A stretch of 52,202 nt of DNA, taken from positions 1 through 52,202 of the forward strand of contig CACZCM010000002.1 in assembly GCA_902779615.1 (NCBI GenBank). The letters are read 5' to 3'. Each line of letters starts with the position of its first letter. Position 1 is the stretch's first letter. The notes under the pieces were generated by a model. That model was not told where the DNA came from. It saw only the letters and a program-made list of their open reading frames with translations, and ran no database searches. Positions 41,934 through 52,202 of this stretch are shown piece after piece. The translations under genes were made by a program, and so were the position numbers. The DNA comes from an uncultured Ruminococcus sp. (GTDB lineage Bacteria; Bacillota; Clostridia; Oscillospirales; Acutalibacteraceae).

Positions 41934-44900
41934 ATGGGATTCAAAAAAGCGTTTTCGGGTTTCATAGCGGCAGCGATGCTTTGTTCGTCTTTTGCTGTTG
42001 CAGGCAGCGTTACTGCAAGCGCAGCGGCTGCCAACGTTGACGCAATAGACCCGAGCGACTTCTCGAGCTACACCACCTACAGCGGCAATGATCTGGGTGC
42101 GGTGTATACTCCCGAGGCAACGACATTCAAGGTTTGGGCGCCGACATCTACCGATGTAAAGCTGAAGCTCTATAAGACGGGCAGCGACAGCGAAGAGGGC
42201 GCAGGTCTTATTTCCACAACACAGATGACGCTCGACAAATCAACGGGCGTTTGGAGCGTTAAGGTTGACGGCGACATCAAGAATACGTATTATACGTATG
42301 AGGTGAAGAACTCACTGAACCCTGACGGCATTGAGGTCGTTGATATTTATGCGAAGGCAGCAGGCGTTAACGGCAACAGAGGCATGGTTGTCGATCTTGA
42401 TTCCACAGACCCCGCAGGCTGGGCAAGCGACACGCACAAGCTGGTTGAATCACCGACACAGGCAGAGGTTTGGGAGATCCATGTCAAGGACTTCTCCTAC
42501 GATCCCGAATCGGGCGTAAGCGAGCAGTACAGAGGCAAGTACATGGCATTCACCGAGTTTGAAACAACTCTCAACAATGCAGGCGATGTTAAGACCTGTA
42601 TGAATTATCTCAAGGATCTCGGCGTAAATTATGTACAGATCAACCCGATGTATGACTACGGTTCCGTCAACGAGGCGTCGGGCGACGATACTCAGTTCAA
42701 CTGGGGCTACGATCCGAAGAACTACAACGTTCCCGAAGGCTCTTACTCGACAAATGCTTTTGACGGCAACGTTCGTATCAACGAAATGAAGACCATGATC
42801 AAGGCGCTGCACGACAACGGTATCGGCGTTATCATGGACGTGGTATACAATCATACCTACGCGTCACAGGATTCGTGGTTTAACCTTACGGTTCCGAATT
42901 ATTACTACAGATTCCAGAGCAGCGGCGCATGGTCAAACGGTTCGGGCTGCGGCAATGATACGGCTTCCGAGCGTGAGATGTTCAAGAAGTTCATGGTGGA
43001 TTCCGTATCGTACTGGGCAGACGAATATCACATCGACGGCTTCCGTTTTGACCTGATGGGTCTTCACGACAGCGACACGATGGACGCAGTTCGCGAGGAG
43101 CTCGACAAGATCGATAAAAGGATTATCATGTACGGCGAGGGCTGGACAATGGGCACTACCGCCGACAGAACAAACTGGAAGGGCAACAAGACATCACTTT
43201 GCATTCAGGCAAAGGCAAAGAGAATAAGCGACAGGATCGGCTTCTTTAATGACGACGTTCGCGACGCCATCAAGGGTAAAGCATTTGATGATCTTACAAG
43301 CCCCGGCTACGTTTCCGGCAACAACGGCGCAGCAGGCACCATCTACAGCAGTGTTATCGGTCACTACACGACATCTAACTGGAAGGTAGCAAGACCCGGA
43401 CAGAATGTTGTATACTCATGCTGCCATGACAATCAGACTCTGTGGGACAGACTCGTTTGCTCCACATACGGTTCTGCGGCAGCTCCGGAGATCTTCGACA
43501 AGAGAAATGAGAGATTCGTTTCGGGCAACAAGCTTGCAGGTGCGATCACAATGACAGCACAGGGCATTCCGTTTATCCTTGCAGGTGAGGAATTCTCCAG
43601 AACTAAGTACGGCGATCACAACAGCTATCGTTCGTCCCCGAACATCAATATGCTCGACTGGTCGAGAGCGGCTGAATACTCCGATGTAGTATCGTACTAC
43701 AAGGGTCTTATCGAGCTTAGAAACGCATTCCCCGGCTTTGCCGATGATACACTCGACACGGCTAAGGCTATTGAGCAGCTTGAAACTCCTACAAATGTAG
43801 TCGGATTCAAGGTTCCGAATCTCAAGGACACTTCCGGCAATACATGGTCAGAGATGTACGTTTATTACAACGGCAATCTTGAGAATTCTGCAGCGATCAC
43901 ACTACCCGCAGTAAGCGGCGAGGGCAGCAGCTTCAAGGGCGATGTTGACAATGACGGCACTATCACTTCCTCCGACGCACTCTCTATCCTTCGTGCAAGC
44001 GTTAATCTCGAAAAGTTCAACGCAGCCAAGAAGGCAACAGCAGATATTGACGGCGATGATATTATCACATCGTTTGATGCACTTATGGTTCTTCGTATGA
44101 GCATTGATCTTGAGGAGAAGATAGCAGTTGGCGGAGAGTACAGCGTTCTCGTTAACAAGCAGCTTGCAGGCGTTGAGGAGCTTGAAGTTGTATCGGGTAC
44201 GATCTCCGTTGAGCCCAATTCTGCGCTTGTTCTCGTTAAGAAGAGCGACTACAATAAAGCCAATATCGGCAAGACAACAGACGAAAACACAGCTTACCTC
44301 GTTGTAAATCACATTAACAGCGCAACGAATAAGACTATTGCAACAACCACAACTAAGGGCACTGTAGGTCAGGGCTACTCGACTCAGCCGGACGATGAAC
44401 TTGCTCTTAATTATGACTTCGACAAGATCGAAGGCGCAGCAAGCGGCACACTCAAGAAGGGTACAACAACAGTTAATTACTACTACAAGCCTTACACTGC
44501 AGGCGTTGGCACTGTAGTTATTAAGTATGTTGACGCAACAACAGGCAGAGCACTCGCAGAAACAGTTACAAAGAGCGCTCGTGTAGGACTTGACTACACA
44601 TCTGACGTTCTTGGATTCCCGTGGTATAAGCTGAAGGCTGTTCCTGCAAATGCACAGGGCAAGTTTACGGCAGATCCTATCGAGGTAGTTTACGAATATG
44701 AACCTACGGAAGAGGTTGTAACATCTACGATCCACGTTAAGCTGGACGACGGCACAGCGTTTACTCCGTATCTCCACATTTGGAACTACTACTATGACGG
44801 CAACAAGACCCAGGGTACAGAATGGTCGGGCGTTGACCTTACAAAGGCTCAAGCTCAGAAAAAGGGCAGCGGAATCACGATAAATGCGGTTGACAGTGAG

Positions 44901-45059
44901 GGCTGGTATTCGGTAACATTCGAAAACGGCAACGGTTACAACTGGATCCTTAATGACAACGCCGGTTCGCAGACAGCTGATATGTCAAGCGGCGGTGACA
45001 TCTGGGTAGTAGCTCACGGTTCGGCAGCTAATGTTACGGTTTACACAGAAAAGCCGTAA
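41934..45059 (+). CDS. Type I pullulanase (GH13) paralogue carrying an internal dockerin, MucBP-like repeats and a C-terminal starch-binding-like module
   Basis: AGGAGG RBS. Signal peptide ..SVTASAAAA. Same GH13/pullulanase motifs (FNWGYDPKNYNVPEGSY, MDVVYNHT, DGFRFDLMG, YGEGW, CCHDN). Dockerin duplicated Ca-loops DVDNDGTITSSDA and DIDGDDIITSFDA (43941-44108). Confidence 0.85.
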   Translation: MGFKKAFSGFIAAAMLCSSFAVAGSVTASAAAANVDAIDPSDFSSYTTYSGNDLGAVYTPEATTFKVWAPTSTDVKLKLYKTGSDSEEGAGLISTTQMTLDKSTGVWSVKVDGDIKNTYYTYEVKNSLNPDGIEVVDIYAKAAGVNGNRGMVVDLDSTDPAGWASDTHKLVESPTQAEVWEIHVKDFSYDPESGVSEQYRGKYMAFTEFETTLNNAGDVKTCMNYLKDLGVNYVQINPMYDYGSVNEASGDDTQFNWGYDPKNYNVPEGSYSTNAFDGNVRINEMKTMIKALHDNGIGVIMDVVYNHTYASQDSWFNLTVPNYYYRFQSSGAWSNGSGCGNDTASEREMFKKFMVDSVSYWADEYHIDGFRFDLMGLHDSDTMDAVREELDKIDKRIIMYGEGWTMGTTADRTNWKGNKTSLCIQAKAKRISDRIGFFNDDVRDAIKGKAFDDLTSPGYVSGNNGAAGTIYSSVIGHYTTSNWKVARPGQNVVYSCCHDNQTLWDRLVCSTYGSAAAPEIFDKRNERFVSGNKLAGAITMTAQGIPFILAGEEFSRTKYGDHNSYRSSPNINMLDWSRAAEYSDVVSYYKGLIELRNAFPGFADDTLDTAKAIEQLETPTNVVGFKVPNLKDTSGNTWSEMYVYYNGNLENSAAITLPAVSGEGSSFKGDVDNDGTITSSDALSILRASVNLEKFNAAKKATADIDGDDIITSFDALMVLRMSIDLEEKIAVGGEYSVLVNKQLAGVEELEVVSGTISVEPNSALVLVKKSDYNKANIGKTTDENTAYLVVNHINSATNKTIATTTTKGTVGQGYSTQPDDELALNYDFDKIEGAASGTLKKGTTTVNYYYKPYTAGVGTVVIKYVDATTGRALAETVTKSARVGLDYTSDVLGFPWYKLKAVPANAQGKFTADPIEVVYEYEPTEEVVTSTIHVKLDDGTAFTPYLHIWNYYYDGNKTQGTEWSGVDLTKAQAQKKGSGITINAVDSEGWYSVTFENGNGYNWILNDNAGSQTADMSSGGDIWVVAHGSAANVTVYTEKP

Positions 45060-46612: not shown

Positions 46613-46686
46613 GCAGATGTAGTTTAGTGGTAGAACTTCAGCCTTCCAAGCTGACCGTGTGGGTTCGATTCCCATCATCTGCTCCA
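46613..46686 (+). tRNA. tRNA-Gly (anticodon UCC), CCA encoded
   Basis: Acceptor gcagatg/catctgc. Anticodon arm tcagc-CTTCCAA-gctga. T arm gtggg-ttcgatt-cccat. Discriminator T plus CCA. Confidence 0.9.
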
Positions 46687-46689
46687 AAT

Positions 46690-46766
46690 GCGCCAATAGC
46701 TCAGCTGGATAGAGCAACTGCCTTCTAAGCAGTAGGTCAGGGGTTCGAGTCCCTTTTGGCGCGCCA
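46690..46766 (+). tRNA. tRNA-Arg (anticodon UCU), CCA encoded
   Basis: Acceptor gcgccaa/ttggcgc. D arm gctc-agctggata-gagc. Anticodon arm actgc-CTTCTAA-gcagt. T arm agggg-ttcgagt-ccctt. Discriminator G plus CCA. Confidence 0.9.
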
Positions 46767-47178: not shown

Positions 47179-47208
47179 ATAATACTACAGATCATATACA
47201 TTTGTCAA
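47179..47208 (-). promoter_or_regulatory. SigA-type promoter pointing leftwards into the ORF-free region
   Basis: On the minus strand: TTGACA, 18 nt, TATTAT. Confidence 0.45.
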
Positions 47209-47250
47209 GACGTTAGTGCGAGATTCTCGTATTAACGTCTTTTTTGTTTT
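47208..47250 (+). terminator. Rho-independent terminator (plus strand)
   Basis: agacgtta..cgaga-t-tctcg..taacgtct compound hairpin followed by tttttgtttt. Confidence 0.65.
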
Positions 47251-47340: not shown

Positions 47341-47580
47341 TCAATCATCAAGATCGTTGTACAAGAATTTATACGCAGGCACATTAAGCGCCTTTGCGAT
47401 ATCAAACAACGAGTCAAGTGAAACAGTACGCTTTACGCCTTGAGCTTCGACGGCTCCCAAAAACGACACGTTAAGGTCAACCATCTCCGCAAGCTCCTCC
47501 TGCGTCAAACCTCTCATTCTTCTATACGTTGCTATTTTTATTCCGAGTATTCTATACTCCTCCGAATGTTCTGCTTTCAT
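47341..47580 (-). CDS. XRE/Cro-CI-family helix-turn-helix transcriptional regulator
   Basis: ATG 47580. IKIATYRRMRGLTQEELAEMVDLNVSFLGAVE is a classical HTH_3 pattern. Confidence 0.85.
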   Translation of the reverse strand: MKAEHSEEYRILGIKIATYRRMRGLTQEELAEMVDLNVSFLGAVEAQGVKRTVSLDSLFDIAKALNVPAYKFLYNDLDD

Positions 47581-47651
47581 TTGCAATCCCTACTTTCAGT
47601 ATAATCTTACCATCTTTATATTGCAATGTGAATTTGGTGATTTACAAAGTA

Positions 47652-48384: not shown

Positions 48385-48624
48385 ATGCCGCTCAAATACA
48401 AATTTAATGTTTTAGAAGCGCTTAAAGACAAAGGTTATTCATCATATCGCTTATCAACAGAAAGAATACTTGCGAATTGCACTATTCAGCGTTTGCGGAA
48501 TGGTAAAATGCTGAATGCGGATAATATGGCTACACTTTGTCGCTTGCTTGAAGTGCAACCGGGTGAACTCCTGTATTATGAAGAAGAAAATGCTAATGAG
48601 AAAGGAATTGCGATAGAACACTAA
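48385..48624 (+). CDS. Small helix-turn-helix (Cro/XRE-like) protein immediately upstream of the SNF2 gene
   Basis: 79 aa. GGAG RBS. SYRLSTERILANCTIQRLRNGKMLNADNMATLCRLLEVQPGELL. Ends 12 nt before the SNF2 start. Confidence 0.65.
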   Translation: MPLKYKFNVLEALKDKGYSSYRLSTERILANCTIQRLRNGKMLNADNMATLCRLLEVQPGELLYYEEENANEKGIAIEH

Positions 48625-48636
48625 GGTTTTGTTGAT

Positions 48637-51600
48637 ATGAAAGTTATTGATAATATCAGTACATTACTGAAAGACGAACTCATAGATAGTATAAAGAAAG
48701 GCAGCAAAATGACTATTGCCGCCTCGTGCTTTTCTATGTATGCATACAAGGAATTGAAGAAACAGCTCGACGGTATCGACGAGCTGCGCTTCTTGTTTAC
48801 ATCACCAACATTCGTAAAGGAAGCGGCAAAAAAAGAAAAGAGAGAGTTTTATATTCCTCGGGTTAATCGAGAGATGGGTTTGTACGGTACAGAGTTTGAA
48901 ATAAAGCTCCGCAACGAAATGACGCAAAAAGCTATTGCAAGAGAATGTGCCGAGTGGGTCAAAGAGAAGGTCAGATTCCGCTCAAATGTCAGCGGTGACA
49001 GTATGAGTGGTTTTATCACTATTGATAATGCTAACGACTTAAATGCATATATGCCTATTGTTGGTTTTACAACTACCGATATAGGCTGTGACAGAGGCAA
49101 TAATGCCTATAACATGGTAAACAGCCTTGACGCTCCGTTTGCTCGGCAATATATTGCGCTCTTTAATCAGCTTTGGAACGACACCGCAAAGCTCGAAGAT
49201 GTTACAGATACCGTCATCGAAAACATAAGTACGGCATATAATGAGAATTCGCCCGAATTCATTTACTTCATAACACTGTATCACGTTTTTAGTGAGTTCC
49301 TCGAAGATATATCCGAAGATGAACTTCCGAACGAGGCAACCGGTTTTAAGAATAGTAAAATATGGAATTTGTTATATGACTTTCAGCGTGACGCAGTTCT
49401 CGCTATTATCAATAAACTCGAAAAATTTAACGGCTGTATTCTTGCTGACAGTGTCGGTCTTGGTAAAACGTTTACGGCACTTGCTGTAATTAAGTATTAT
49501 GAGAACAGAAACAAGACCGTTCTCGTTCTGTGTCCCAAAAAGCTTGCAAACAACTGGAACACATATAAAGACAACTATGTCAACAATCCTATAGCTGCCG
49601 ACAGACTGAATTACGATGTTCTGTTCCATACCGATCTTTCTCGTGACGGCGGCTATTCTAACGGACTTGATCTCGATCGTCTGAATTGGGGCAATTATGA
49701 TCTGATCGTAATTGATGAATCACATAATTTCAGAAACGGTATCGGTACACATTCCAACACGCAAGAGAACAGATATAAACGGCTTATGGATAAAGTTATT
49801 CGCGCCGGAGTCAAAACAAAGGTGCTTATGCTTTCCGCTACGCCTGTAAATAACCATTTTACAGATCTGCGAAATCAGCTTGCTCTTGCTTATGAGGGTA
49901 CATCGGAAAAGCTGACCGATAAACTTAACACAAAAAAATCCATTGAGCAGATATTCAGAGAGGCGCAAAGAGCATTTAATATCTGGAGCGACTATCCTAA
50001 AGAAGAGCGAACTACAGAATCGTTGCTGCGTATGCTTGATTTCGACTTTTTCGAGCTGCTTGACAGCGTAACAATTGCACGATCGAGAAAGCATATTCAG
50101 AAATACTACAATAGTGAAAAGATCGGGAAATTCCCCGAAAGGCTGAAGCCGGTCTCTCTTGCTCCGTCACTTTCCGATCTGGACAATGCGATAAACTACA
50201 ACGAAATATACAGCATTCTGATTGAACTGTCACTTTGCGTTTATCTGCCGTCTCATTATATTTTTGACAGTAAAAAGCCAAAGTATATGGACGAAAACGA
50301 TAATTTTCGTCAAACAAACCGTGAGCTTGGTATTCGCAGATTAATGGCTATCAATCTTCTTAAAAGACTTGAAAGCTCGGTTAATTCATTCTCACTTACC
50401 TTGCAGCGAATCTATAAATTGATAAATGACACTATCATCAAAATAAACAATTACGAAAGCAAACACGGTTTATCAGAGCTTGATGTATTTGATATCACCG
50501 AAGACGATTTCGATTTTGACGACAGTAATGCCGATTTTACGGTTGGAAAAAAAGTCAGGATCGATCTTGCGGATATGGATTATCGTTCGTGGAGAGCCGA
50601 TCTGCAAAAGGATAAAGACTCACTTGAATTGCTTATCTCTATGATTGGAGATATTACTCCCGAACACGATACCAAATTGCAGGCGCTTTTGGATCTCATA
50701 TCGAAAAAGCAGAATTCTCCGATCAATCCCGGCAATAAGAAAATGATTATCTTTACGGCGTTCTCGGATACGGCGGAATATCTTTACGACAATGTGAGTG
50801 CCTATGTAAAGAGTAAATTCGGTCTTGAAACGGCTGTGATCACCGGAACCATTGAAGGCAAAACCACGATCAGGCTGAAACAAACCAACCTTAATAATGT
50901 TTTAACGCTGTTTTCCCCGGTATCAAAAGGCAGAGATGTTCTTATGCCCGGAAATACACAGGAGATAGATATTCTTATCGCTACCGATTGTATTTCAGAA
51001 GGTCAGAATTTGCAGGACTGCGATTATCTTGTGAATTATGATATCCATTGGAATCCCGTTCGGATAACGCAGCGTTTCGGAAGAATTGACCGTATCGGCA
51101 GCAGAAACGAATGCATTCAGCTTGTGAATTTCTGGCCCGATATGGATCTCGACGATTATCTCAATCTTAAATCACGAGTGGAAACAAGAATGAAGATATC
51201 CGTTATGACTTCTACAGGCGATGATGATCTTATTAACGCAGAAGAAAAAGGTGATCTTGAATACCGCAGCTCGCAGCTTAAAAAGATGATGAGTGAAGTC
51301 GTTGATATGGAAGAAATGAACGACGGTATTTCCATCATGGATTTAGGTCTCAATGAGTATCGGCTTGATCTGCTCGATTACATAAAGGATCACAAAGATA
51401 TTGAGAAAAAGCCGAAAGGACTTCACGCCGTTGTACCCGCTACCGAGGAGCTTGGCGAAGGCGTTATCTTTGTTTTGAAAAATGTTAATGACGAGGTAAA
51501 TATAGGCAATCAAAACCGAATTCACCCGTTCTATATGGTGTATATCAGTATCGACGGCGAGGTGATATGCGACTATCTCAATCCCAAAGAGCTGCTTGAT

Positions 51601-51867
51601 GATATTCGTTTGCTGTGCAAGGGAAAATCCGAGCCCTTCAAAGACCTGTGCCGCATATTCAATGAGGAAACCGACGACGGCAGAGATATGGCACAAATGA
51701 GTGAACTTTTGAGTATTGCTATTGAGTCGATCATTGATACAAAAGCCGAAAGCGATATTGACAGTCTTTTCTCTCCGGGCGGCACAAGTGCGCTTATATC
51801 AGACGTTAACGGACTTGATGATTTTGAGCTTATCTGTTTTCTTGTGGTGAAGGACGGTGATAGTTAA
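48637..51867 (+). CDS. SNF2-family ATPase/helicase with ~240-aa N-terminal non-helicase domain (PLD-like fold suspected, no HxK motif seen)
   Basis: Motif I ILADSVGLGKTFTA, II DLIVIDESHNFRN, III LMLSATPVNN, V TDCISEGQNLQDC, VI HWNPVRITQRFGRIDRIGS. The split helicase core has a long insert. C-terminal ~250 aa has no recognised family. Confidence 0.85.
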   Translation: MKVIDNISTLLKDELIDSIKKGSKMTIAASCFSMYAYKELKKQLDGIDELRFLFTSPTFVKEAAKKEKREFYIPRVNREMGLYGTEFEIKLRNEMTQKAIARECAEWVKEKVRFRSNVSGDSMSGFITIDNANDLNAYMPIVGFTTTDIGCDRGNNAYNMVNSLDAPFARQYIALFNQLWNDTAKLEDVTDTVIENISTAYNENSPEFIYFITLYHVFSEFLEDISEDELPNEATGFKNSKIWNLLYDFQRDAVLAIINKLEKFNGCILADSVGLGKTFTALAVIKYYENRNKTVLVLCPKKLANNWNTYKDNYVNNPIAADRLNYDVLFHTDLSRDGGYSNGLDLDRLNWGNYDLIVIDESHNFRNGIGTHSNTQENRYKRLMDKVIRAGVKTKVLMLSATPVNNHFTDLRNQLALAYEGTSEKLTDKLNTKKSIEQIFREAQRAFNIWSDYPKEERTTESLLRMLDFDFFELLDSVTIARSRKHIQKYYNSEKIGKFPERLKPVSLAPSLSDLDNAINYNEIYSILIELSLCVYLPSHYIFDSKKPKYMDENDNFRQTNRELGIRRLMAINLLKRLESSVNSFSLTLQRIYKLINDTIIKINNYESKHGLSELDVFDITEDDFDFDDSNADFTVGKKVRIDLADMDYRSWRADLQKDKDSLELLISMIGDITPEHDTKLQALLDLISKKQNSPINPGNKKMIIFTAFSDTAEYLYDNVSAYVKSKFGLETAVITGTIEGKTTIRLKQTNLNNVLTLFSPVSKGRDVLMPGNTQEIDILIATDCISEGQNLQDCDYLVNYDIHWNPVRITQRFGRIDRIGSRNECIQLVNFWPDMDLDDYLNLKSRVETRMKISVMTSTGDDDLINAEEKGDLEYRSSQLKKMMSEVVDMEEMNDGISIMDLGLNEYRLDLLDYIKDHKDIEKKPKGLHAVVPATEELGEGVIFVLKNVNDEVNIGNQNRIHPFYMVYISIDGEVICDYLNPKELLDDIRLLCKGKSEPFKDLCRIFNEETDDGRDMAQMSELLSIAIESIIDTKAESDIDSLFSPGGTSALISDVNGLDDFELICFLVVKDGDS

Positions 51868-52202
51868 TGTTGAATTTTCCGCAAACAACATATTTCGGAA
51901 AACTTGTACCTAAAAATAAGTTTTACGACAAGCTCACTATCGACAAAAAACTGGAGCGCAGCTTTATAGATCAAATTACCTCTATACGTTGGGTGCATAA
52001 GCTGTCCGCAGATACATTGAATGTTGAGAAGGGCAGCACCGTTCAAGAAGTCGAGGTTTTCCTTGTAAAACTGAAAACGCCAGAGCTTGATATTAACGTG
52101 CTTAAACAGATGGACAGGCAGCTGCCGTACCATTTGATATTCATTCTTGAATTTGACGGCAAAATACAAGTATGGACAAGCTACAAGGAAGAAAGCACGG
52201 GC
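51867..52202 (+). CDS. DUF4391-like protein, 3'-truncated by the window end
   Basis: Not in the ORF track (no stop within the window). Its ATG overlaps the SNF2 stop (TAATG). MLNFPQTTYFGKLVPKNKFYDKLTIDKKLERSFIDQITSIRWVHKLSADTLNVEKGSTVQEVEVFLVKLKTPELDINVLKQMDRQLPYHLIFILEFDGKIQVW matches my recollection of DUF4391 N-terminal regions. Confidence 0.6.
   Translation, partial: MLNFPQTTYFGKLVPKNKFYDKLTIDKKLERSFIDQITSIRWVHKLSADTLNVEKGSTVQEVEVFLVKLKTPELDINVLKQMDRQLPYHLIFILEFDGKIQVWTSYKEESTG

Follow-up and report, generated by a model that had tools for sequence, protein, structure and literature searches.

At the right-hand end of a 52,202-nt stretch of DNA from an uncultured Ruminococcus sp. (GenBank assembly GCA_902779615.1, contig CACZCM010000002.1, positions 1 to 52,202; the window, from here on), a gene for a SNF2-family ATPase is preceded by a small helix-turn-helix (HTH) gene and followed by the first part of a DUF4391 gene (Table 1). 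Comparison with relatives places the SNF2 and DUF4391 genes at the front of a four-gene cassette, SNF2-DUF4391-Mod-Res, in which Mod and Res are the methyltransferase and endonuclease of a Type III restriction-modification (R-M) system; this Type III R-M lineage has two further conserved subunits, and for one of them, DUF4391, we found no structural relative. The gene layout had been described in an earlier sequence-only reading of this DNA, and calling of open reading frames (ORFs) reproduced its coordinates. A gap of 12 nt separates the end of the HTH_26 gene from the start of the 1076-aa SNF2 gene, and the SNF2 stop codon TAA at 51865-51867 overlaps the DUF4391 ATG at 51867 (TAATG), an arrangement by which DUF4391 is predicted to be translationally coupled to the SNF2 gene.

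Table 1. Features at and upstream of the SNF2-DUF4391 locus, in window positions
Feature	Position	Strand	Basis
tRNA-Gly(TCC) and tRNA-Arg(TCT)	46613..46766	+	ARAGORN
XRE-type HTH gene, 81 aa, divergent	47341..47586	-	Pfam HTH_3, 2.2e-10
YpsA/SLOG-family gene, 157 aa	47728..48201	+	Pfam YpsA, 4.5e-16
HTH_26 gene, 79 aa	48385..48624	+	Pfam HTH_26, 2.2e-09
SNF2 ATPase gene, 1076 aa	48637..51867	+	Pfam SNF2-rel_dom and Helicase_C
SNF2 residues 1-245, N-terminal domain	48637..49371	+	no Pfam match
SNF2 residues 246-831, SNF2-type SF2 ATPase core	49372..51129	+	Pfam; motifs intact
SNF2 residues 832-1076 and stop codon, conserved C-terminal domain	51130..51867	+	no Pfam match
DUF4391 gene, codons 1-112 of 215; continues past window end	51867..52202	+	Pfam DUF4391

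The continuation of the locus was read from an identical metagenomic contig (L001), located by exact look-up of the SNF2 protein, which extends 1685 nt past the window. It carries the full 215-aa DUF4391 gene (L001 13231-13878, ending at ~52514 in window numbering), a 120-aa gene for a 23S_rRNA_IVP four-helix-bundle protein (L001 14020-14382, ~52656-53018 in window numbering), and the first 152 codons of a last gene, which include the methyltransferase motif IYIDPPYNTG and encode a fragment 88% identical to the N-terminus of Mod in the nearest relative, L007. The L007 SNF2 is 92% identical to that of the window, and the upstream XRE-type HTH, YpsA, and HTH_26 genes are also in common; this complete Ruminococcus copy spans L007 1678-12813, and its operon runs SNF2, two DUF4391 paralogues, an AbiJ-like gene, Mod (636 aa), a 124-aa ORF, and Res (1015 aa). 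Loci L003-L006, with a DUF4391 80% identical to that of the window, have the order SNF2, DUF4391, a 242-aa ORF, Mod, RhuM, and Res, in an element that also encodes a relaxase and a serine recombinase. The sequence-only reading had proposed extending the contig to see whether R-M-like or housekeeping genes follow: a methyltransferase (Mod) lies downstream on L001, Res is found in the nearest relatives, and no housekeeping genes appear there.

We scanned one genome per GTDB species with a degenerate pattern built from a 10-sequence DUF4391 alignment and obtained 80 loci, in Bacillota, Bacteroidota, Pseudomonadota, Synergistota, Chloroflexota, Fibrobacterota, Planctomycetota, Acidobacteriota, Spirochaetota, and others. 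ORFs were called in these loci and labelled by phmmer and hmmsearch against reference proteins, and only loci with enough flank were counted. SNF2 lies directly upstream of DUF4391 in 60 of 64 evaluable loci, and downstream of DUF4391 we found Mod in 55/56 and Res in 39/45; the order SNF2, DUF4391, Mod, Res is constant across the scanned loci, with all genes on the same strand, and in most loci the SNF2 and DUF4391 genes are close or overlapping (spacing mostly -8 to +12 nt). The link of SNF2-DUF4391 pairs to a methyltransferase and a second helicase-nuclease, stated in the sequence-only reading, thus holds in almost every locus examined; the partner is canonical Type III R-M specifically and is not of the PLD type. 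Both protein families are large, with 1814 relatives of DUF4391 (E≤0.001) among 50%-identity cluster representatives and at least 8000 candidates in the SNF2 search at E≤1e-10.

Among the departures from this organization, two loci are decayed copies that keep N-terminal remnants of Mod: L026 retains SNF2 and DUF4391 but neither an intact Mod nor an intact Res, and in L031 the SNF2 gene is internally deleted. Four Fibrobacter loci are packed with inserted genes, and Res there probably lies beyond the 10-kb flank. In loci L041, L043, and L065, from Gemella metagenome-assembled genomes (MAGs), DUF4391, Mod, and Res are present, and the surrounding 10 kb hold neither an SNF2 gene nor a remnant of one. 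A protein of 421-426 aa is encoded upstream in the Gemella loci; the L043 copy has a weak HEPN-like match and the L065 copy none.

The cassette also travels on plasmids. All four genes lie on the E. coli plasmid pLAO18 (L088; NZ_OP242248.1 3154-12215), adjoining repA, and the cassette occurs in 10/5426 complete E. coli genomes, where 10 of the 11 matching places are plasmids; its E. coli host plasmids are IncFIB, ~110 kb. Homologues are also found on Acinetobacter, Citrobacter, and other plasmids. RefSeq names the four products helicase-related protein, DUF4391 domain-containing protein, site-specific DNA-methyltransferase, and type III restriction-modification system endonuclease. Public annotation therefore already displays the four genes together, and we found no paper that discusses the association. 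Two unannotated 13-kb contigs from human faeces, filed in a phage collection and labelled 'Bacteriophage sp.' (MT836075.1 and MT836122.1), encode DUF4391 homologues of 45% and 37% identity, respectively.

The two downstream genes have the features of a standard Type III pair. L007 Mod and Res match EcoP15I Mod (PDB 4zcf_A, 4.6e-61) and Res (PDB 4zcf_C, 8.1e-64) over most of their length, PADLOC assigns them to MTase_III (4.8e-229) and REase_III (8.8e-290), and Pfam finds N6_N4_Mtase in Mod and ResIII together with RE_endonuc in Res. The motifs DPPY and FxGxG are conserved in Mod, as are GTGKT, DEPQ, and PD..ExK in Res. Judged by these signatures, the pair is orthodox and fully competent: Mod is predicted to be a beta-class N6-adenine methyltransferase with a swappable target recognition domain (TRD), and Res a superfamily 2 (SF2) helicase joined to a PD-(D/E)xK nuclease, which together would be expected to methylate an asymmetric site and, with the use of ATP, to cleave foreign DNA that lacks the methylation. 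In the window organism Mod is seen as its first 152 aa, and the Type III Res is known from relatives.

Pairwise identities across 40 complete loci indicate that the four proteins diverge together. Between any two of SNF2, Res, DUF4391, and the Mod core, these identities give Spearman coefficients of 0.73-0.89 (SNF2 versus Res 0.89; DUF4391 versus Res and the Mod core 0.83-0.85), and the four genes are, by this measure, one co-inherited unit. The Mod TRD follows the other parts only loosely (Spearman 0.21-0.32), and TRDs can be 27-28% identical despite 97% identity of SNF2 and Res and 92-94% of DUF4391, a pattern that points to frequent TRD exchange and hence to specificity switching. TRD shuffling is the expected behaviour of Type III mod genes. 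TRDs only 15-28% identical, where SNF2, Res, and DUF4391 are 88-97% identical, were seen in L057/L058/L059, L014/L015, L047/L054, and other pairs. DUF4391 was also considered as a specificity factor, and we rejected this since its divergence does not follow that of the TRD.

The junctions within the cassette are frequently occupied by other genes. At least one inserted gene is present between DUF4391 and Mod in 40/67 loci, the slot taken by the 23S_rRNA_IVP gene in the window organism, and the Mod-Res junction holds inserted genes in 17/50. We searched 77 inserted genes against Pfam, with a few more scanned separately, and the families found include AAA_13/SMC_N, AAA_21 with RloB, the YhcG PD-(D/E)xK nuclease, Fic/DOC, RhuM, Schlafen AlbA_2, TIR, SIR2, AbiJ, AbiGi, ThsA-Macro, GIY-YIG, DUF6680, and 23S_rRNA_IVP. 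The cassette is a landing pad for defence-type cargo. Type I hsd loci are known to take up the rlo genes in a comparable way. The inter-gene junctions of hmaABC are likewise hot spots for inserted defence genes (PMC11232893).

With so many other defence genes inside the cassette, co-location alone is weak evidence for co-function, and SNF2 and DUF4391 could be an independent two-gene defence system that shares a hot spot with one Type III lineage. The cargo changes from locus to locus, however, whereas SNF2 and DUF4391 keep a fixed order and near-universal linkage across phyla, and SNF2 divergence closely follows that of Res. L026, with its SNF2 and DUF4391 genes and no intact Mod or Res, would suit an independent pair, but it is, like L031, a decayed locus with Mod remnants and not a free-standing one, and among the loci examined we saw no SNF2-DUF4391 pair beside any other kind of system. 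PADLOC does hold a stand-alone SNF2-family profile, 'HKD+Snf2'; the SNF2 protein of the cassette is without recognisable nuclease effector residues. We consider an independent pair very unlikely.

The SNF2 protein combines a motor with two flanking domains. Pfam locates SNF2-rel_dom (PF00176) at residues 250-413 (7.8e-13, 48.6 bits) and Helicase_C (PF00271) at residues 680-821 (3.2e-14, 53.5 bits), and motifs I (GLGKT, 274-278), II (DESH, 360-363), and VI (QRFGRIDRIG, 812-821) are invariant in 59 full-length homologues, in keeping with the full set of helicase motifs claimed from the sequence. From these matches the protein is an SNF2-family SF2 ATPase with intact core motifs, and it is unusually well conserved, at 52-61% identity between phyla. 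The N- and C-terminal domains, which the sequence-only reading could not assign, are equally refractory to Pfam: residues 1-245 and 832-1076 give no match at E≤1, phospholipase D (PLD) families included. Searched whole, the protein fits the PADLOC profile PDLC01075 'HKD+Snf2' best (full-length, 2e-120, aligned from residue 2). When searched alone, the N-domain has no PADLOC match, 'HKD+Snf2' included, and the C-domain matches only the C-terminal part of PDLC01075 (739-947 of 948, 3.1e-16). Profile searches of the PDB with the N-domain, the C-domain, and DUF4391 returned nothing meaningful.

The N-domain nevertheless has many residues invariant in the 59 homologues, including F32, S33, F52, F54, T55, E88, N93, E103, and W107. 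We looked within residues 1-245 of these proteins for the HKD motif, HxK(x)4D(x)6GSxN, and found no conserved His or Lys in the pattern, the equivalent stretch being variable. An AlphaFold2 model of the domain, built from 30 homologues of 69-90% identity, is poor (predicted local distance difference test [pLDDT] 50), and its five best Foldseek matches are all to the PLD superfamily (NgoAVII R-protein, PPK, SauUSI), although non-significant (E 0.3-1.4, template modelling [TM] score <0.32). The N-domain is probably a catalytically dead PLD-like fold under strong selection, with the fold itself tentative.

RapA is the best-known bacterial SNF2 protein, and the sequence-only reading had raised the possibility that the ATPase is a core RapA/HepA-type factor. 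It would then be a housekeeping RNA polymerase recycling factor in a coincidental neighbourhood. The nearest solved structures are indeed eukaryotic and archaeal SNF2 ATPases and RapA, although all of these are core-only matches, weak ones in the case of RapA. The protein scores 53.7 bits against an NCBIfam RapA cut-off of 576 and has no similarity to RapA outside motifs V-VI, and an hhalign comparison of the C-domain with the C-terminus of E. coli RapA gave a probability of 0.35%. Its distribution is patchy across phyla, on mobilisable elements and plasmids, and all 10 cassette-bearing E. coli genomes also have their own rapA. These scores and this distribution refute RapA orthology, and we regard a housekeeping role as extremely improbable.

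DUF4391 had been named in the sequence-only reading, and Pfam agrees. The 112-codon window fragment matches PF14335 positions 1-111 of 232 (1.4e-30, 107.3 bits against a gathering threshold of 29.9), and the full 215-aa protein gives 2.6e-55 and 188.3 bits. In an AlphaFold2 model from an 80-sequence alignment (pLDDT 75, predicted TM score [pTM] 0.60), an alpha/beta domain (~1-155) is followed by an antiparallel coiled-coil hairpin of helices 164-190 and 194-213, and the sole strictly invariant stretch of the family, EKQFNRQ (E191-K-Q-F-N-R-Q), lies at the hairpin turn. Foldseek returned nothing convincing for the model (best E 0.13 in the PDB and 0.056 in BFVD, TM <0.3), with no nuclease among its best 50 matches. 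Other conserved polar residues are few (K16, E61, K107) and form no recognisable catalytic motif; a PD-(D/E)xK reading of the alpha/beta domain was also tried and discarded because the strand order and these three residues do not fit the motif. From the conservation of the hairpin tip and the lack of a structural match to an enzyme we infer that DUF4391 is a non-enzymatic subunit, and the uncoupling of TRD divergence from that of DUF4391 indicates that it is not the specificity determinant.

Several DUF4391 variants were noted. Tandem paralogues, one long (271-324 aa) and one of standard length (~215 aa), occur in L007 (5159-6612), L023 (9086-10639), and L082 (9022-10609). One protein (P0256) is a rare fusion of DUF4391 to an ASCH domain, and DUF4391 proteins of 376 aa (P0300 and L045) have a C-terminal extension of ~160 aa with no assigned family.

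DUF4391 is the fastest evolving of the four proteins, with a median pairwise identity of 0.34 versus 0.62 for Res, 0.60 for SNF2, and 0.51 for Mod. Such divergence, together with the tandem diverged paralogues, could be expected if DUF4391 were a guard or sensor of phage anti-restriction proteins or of infection that switches on the SNF2 motor or Res. The model for such a role is the small, fast-evolving, PbeB-like neighbour of an HKD-SF2 helicase, proposed to be a regulator or interactor with viral triggers (PMC10853773). This is analogy only, and the invariant hairpin tip and the co-divergence of DUF4391 with Res and the Mod core suggest a fixed subunit interface more than a surface shaped by an arms race; a guard role seems to us quite unlikely.

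The cassette resembles several known systems without coinciding with any of them. With the Type III R-M enzymes EcoP15I and EcoP1I (Mod2Res) it shares homologous Mod and Res proteins with intact motifs and a swapping TRD, and both PGAP and PADLOC label these two proteins Type III. Classical Type III systems have two genes, whereas here mod almost always comes after SNF2 and DUF4391 genes, whose divergence runs parallel to its own, and mod and res are often split by inserted genes. Classical Type III cleavage is ATP-dependent and requires two unmethylated sites in inverse orientation, and methylation is of one strand (hemimethylation). Class 1 DISARM (DrmD, DrmMI, DrmA, DrmB, DrmC) likewise is an R-M-like defence that combines an SNF2 ATPase, an N6-adenine methyltransferase, and a second helicase; it also has a PLD-type domain, for which the probable PLD-like fold here would be the counterpart. 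DrmD profiles are among the best secondary matches of the SNF2 protein, at 150.9 bits against the NF038317 cut-off of 610. However, no DrmA, DrmB (DUF1998), or separate DrmC/PLD gene was present in the neighbourhoods read; here the probable PLD-like domain is fused to the motor and is without HKD residues, and the second helicase is a true Type III Res.

There is also a resemblance in domain layout to the HKD-endoDNase plus Swi2/Snf2 proteins of Type-2 BREX-related systems and to PbeA of PbeABCD, which have an N-terminal PLD-type domain (a probable one in the cassette protein), an SF2/SNF2 motor, an alpha+beta C-terminus, and an adjoining adenine methyltransferase and small accessory protein. 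Those helicases keep an active HKD nuclease as their main effector, and their partners are a DUF499 ATPase, a DUF1156 methyltransferase, and DUF3780, or a CxC ABC ATPase and DndE (Rakesh & Krishnan, PMC12839542; PMC10853773), whereas the cassette protein has no HKD residues and is partnered by DUF4391 and Type III Mod and Res. Hma (HmaA, an Snf2 protein with a NOV_C nuclease, HmaB, and HmaC) is another Snf2-based, methyltransferase-linked operon with junction hot spots (PMC11232893), although HmaA has a C-terminal PD-(D/E)xK nickase and DUF1156 and DUF499 partners, none of which is present here. The HmaA profile matches only the helicase C-lobe of the SNF2 protein, and no DUF499 (BrxC-like) ATPase or DUF1156-type methyltransferase was found in the neighbourhoods, where the neighbours are the N6_N4_Mtase Mod and the ResIII and RE_endonuc Res. 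The Type IV enzyme SauUSI has a comparable three-part layout of PLD nuclease, SF2 helicase, and C-terminal target-recognition domain, but it works as a single protein, a nuclease that depends on modification, in which the PLD site is active and the helicase is not of the SNF2 type. The DUF4391 mentions in the literature that we searched included none that is functional.

The small HTH gene ahead of SNF2, which the sequence-only reading had counted as part of the module, does not belong to the conserved cassette. A small ORF lies ≤150 nt upstream of SNF2 in 31 of the 59 loci with a full-length SNF2 (L003 and L007 among them), yet an HTH_26 orthologue occupies that place only in the nearest relative, L007. 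We scanned 30 of the 31 ORFs plus the window's own HTH with Pfam, and found HTH_26 in five, HTH_17 in five, a few other HTH families, and no match in the rest; different HTH families thus appear, in a minority of loci. The HTH_26 protein has no PADLOC or NCBIfam match, including to the PADLOC Control_protein profiles, and there is no convincing operator repeat (C-box) upstream of 48385. It is probably a recurrent non-orthologous add-on, acting as a local operon regulator. The divergent 81-aa XRE protein matches the PADLOC HTH_VI and R-M Control_protein profiles (1.8e-09 to 4.9e-09, with 4.9e-09 for Control_protein). The YpsA/SLOG gene stands ahead of the cassette in L007 and in the alphaproteobacterial MAG L045 and is not part of the conserved cassette.

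The setting is the tRNA-adjacent island with XRE and HTH regulators that had been claimed from the sequence: GC content falls from ~0.50 to ~0.40 at the tRNA pair, from 46 kb on to the window end, and the HTH_3 and HTH_26 genes lie within this region. The tRNA pair marks the left edge of the low-GC island bearing the cassette, and low GC beside tRNA genes fits a horizontally acquired island. A search for an island-free allele by way of the neighbouring DAHP synthase gene yielded nothing but one short contig, whose break lies close to the tRNAs. The gap that separates the tRNA pair from the XRE gene holds a strong terminator-like hairpin of 16 pairs followed by a T-run (47207-47241). Further upstream, 41934-45059 and the gene before it encode two alpha-amylases of >1000 aa with CBM48 and MucBP domains, and a dockerin in one; they hint at a starch degrader of amylosome type from the Ruminococcus group, in agreement with the source names attached to the nearest SNF2 and DUF4391 homologues.

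The cassette is mobile, being found on a tRNA island, on relaxase/serine-recombinase elements, and on E. coli and Acinetobacter plasmids, and with every TRD swap the host genome has to withstand a specificity that is new to it. SNF2 and DUF4391, the first-transcribed genes of the operon, might then form a safety or establishment module that restrains Res or promotes methylation on host entry or after replication and so prevents self-restriction. Classical Type III systems need no such module, however, and a 1076-aa ATPase kept at 52-61% cross-phylum identity would be a costly regulator; nor does anything point to a methylation-reading domain, except the rare DUF4391-ASCH fusion. We think a safety role unlikely.

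On balance, we favour a single four-component R-M cassette, SNF2-DUF4391-Mod-Res, carried on a tRNA-adjacent acquired island, in which SNF2 and DUF4391 assist the Mod-Res enzyme. Mod-Res would carry out site recognition, methylation, and cleavage. SNF2 would serve as a second double-stranded DNA translocase or remodeller with an active ATPase; it would not be a nuclease, because its probably PLD-like N-domain is without catalytic residues. DUF4391 would couple the SNF2 motor to the Mod-Res complex, and the Gemella loci with DUF4391, Mod, and Res but no SNF2 hint at this, in that they fit DUF4391 contacting the R-M side. The pair may aid restriction, license it, or extend its range, for example by loading the Mod-Res enzyme or by remodelling or clearing DNA that is covered by protein or refractory in some other way, and the HTH protein would regulate the operon locally. 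SNF2 helicases are thought to act in comparable fashion in class 1 DISARM and type 3 BREX.

Several points weigh against this proposal. Res already has an ATPase and a nuclease of its own, both intact by sequence, which leaves no evident gap in activity for a second motor to fill. The same Gemella loci are an R-M pair with DUF4391 that persists without SNF2. The view of the N-domain as a dead PLD fold rests on a model of pLDDT 50, and that of DUF4391 as an adaptor leans on a moderate model (pLDDT 75, pTM 0.60); a protein evolving as rapidly as DUF4391 could also be a sensor, or one that phage anti-restriction proteins target, and not a passive adaptor. Both contigs of the window organism stop inside mod, before Res, so the complete system there is extrapolated from relatives. 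We found no description of an SNF2-DUF4391-Type III system in the literature searched (DUF4391/PF14335/IPR025503, SNF2 with Type III, and phage-plasmid SSU5).

A stronger version of this proposal is possible, although we hold it only tentatively: SNF2 and DUF4391 might be obligatory subunits of a mechanistically distinct four-component machine, in which the invariant coiled-coil tip of DUF4391, a protein of novel fold, would be the docking point for a dead-PLD remodeller. Such a machine might restrict DNA out of reach of classical Type III enzymes (single-orientation sites, protein-coated DNA, or modified DNA, for instance), or might sense and override phage anti-restriction; if so, it would form a sub-class of its own among ATP-dependent R-M systems, a new one.

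The Type III R-M enzymes pass for well-understood machines of two subunits, and here a large Type III lineage forms one inherited unit together with a second motor, the highly conserved SNF2 protein, and with a protein to which no fold could be assigned. Establishing the role of the pair would give a function to DUF4391, a family spread over many phyla that occurs in gut anaerobes as well as on plasmids of E. coli and Acinetobacter. The cassette is the simplest available setting in which to examine the general idea of SNF2 motors as helpers of methylation-based immunity, on the pattern of DISARM, type 3 BREX, and BREX-related systems, and the copy on the E. coli plasmid pLAO18 is a convenient experimental model. 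As a recurrent landing pad, the cassette is also useful for the discovery of defence genes.

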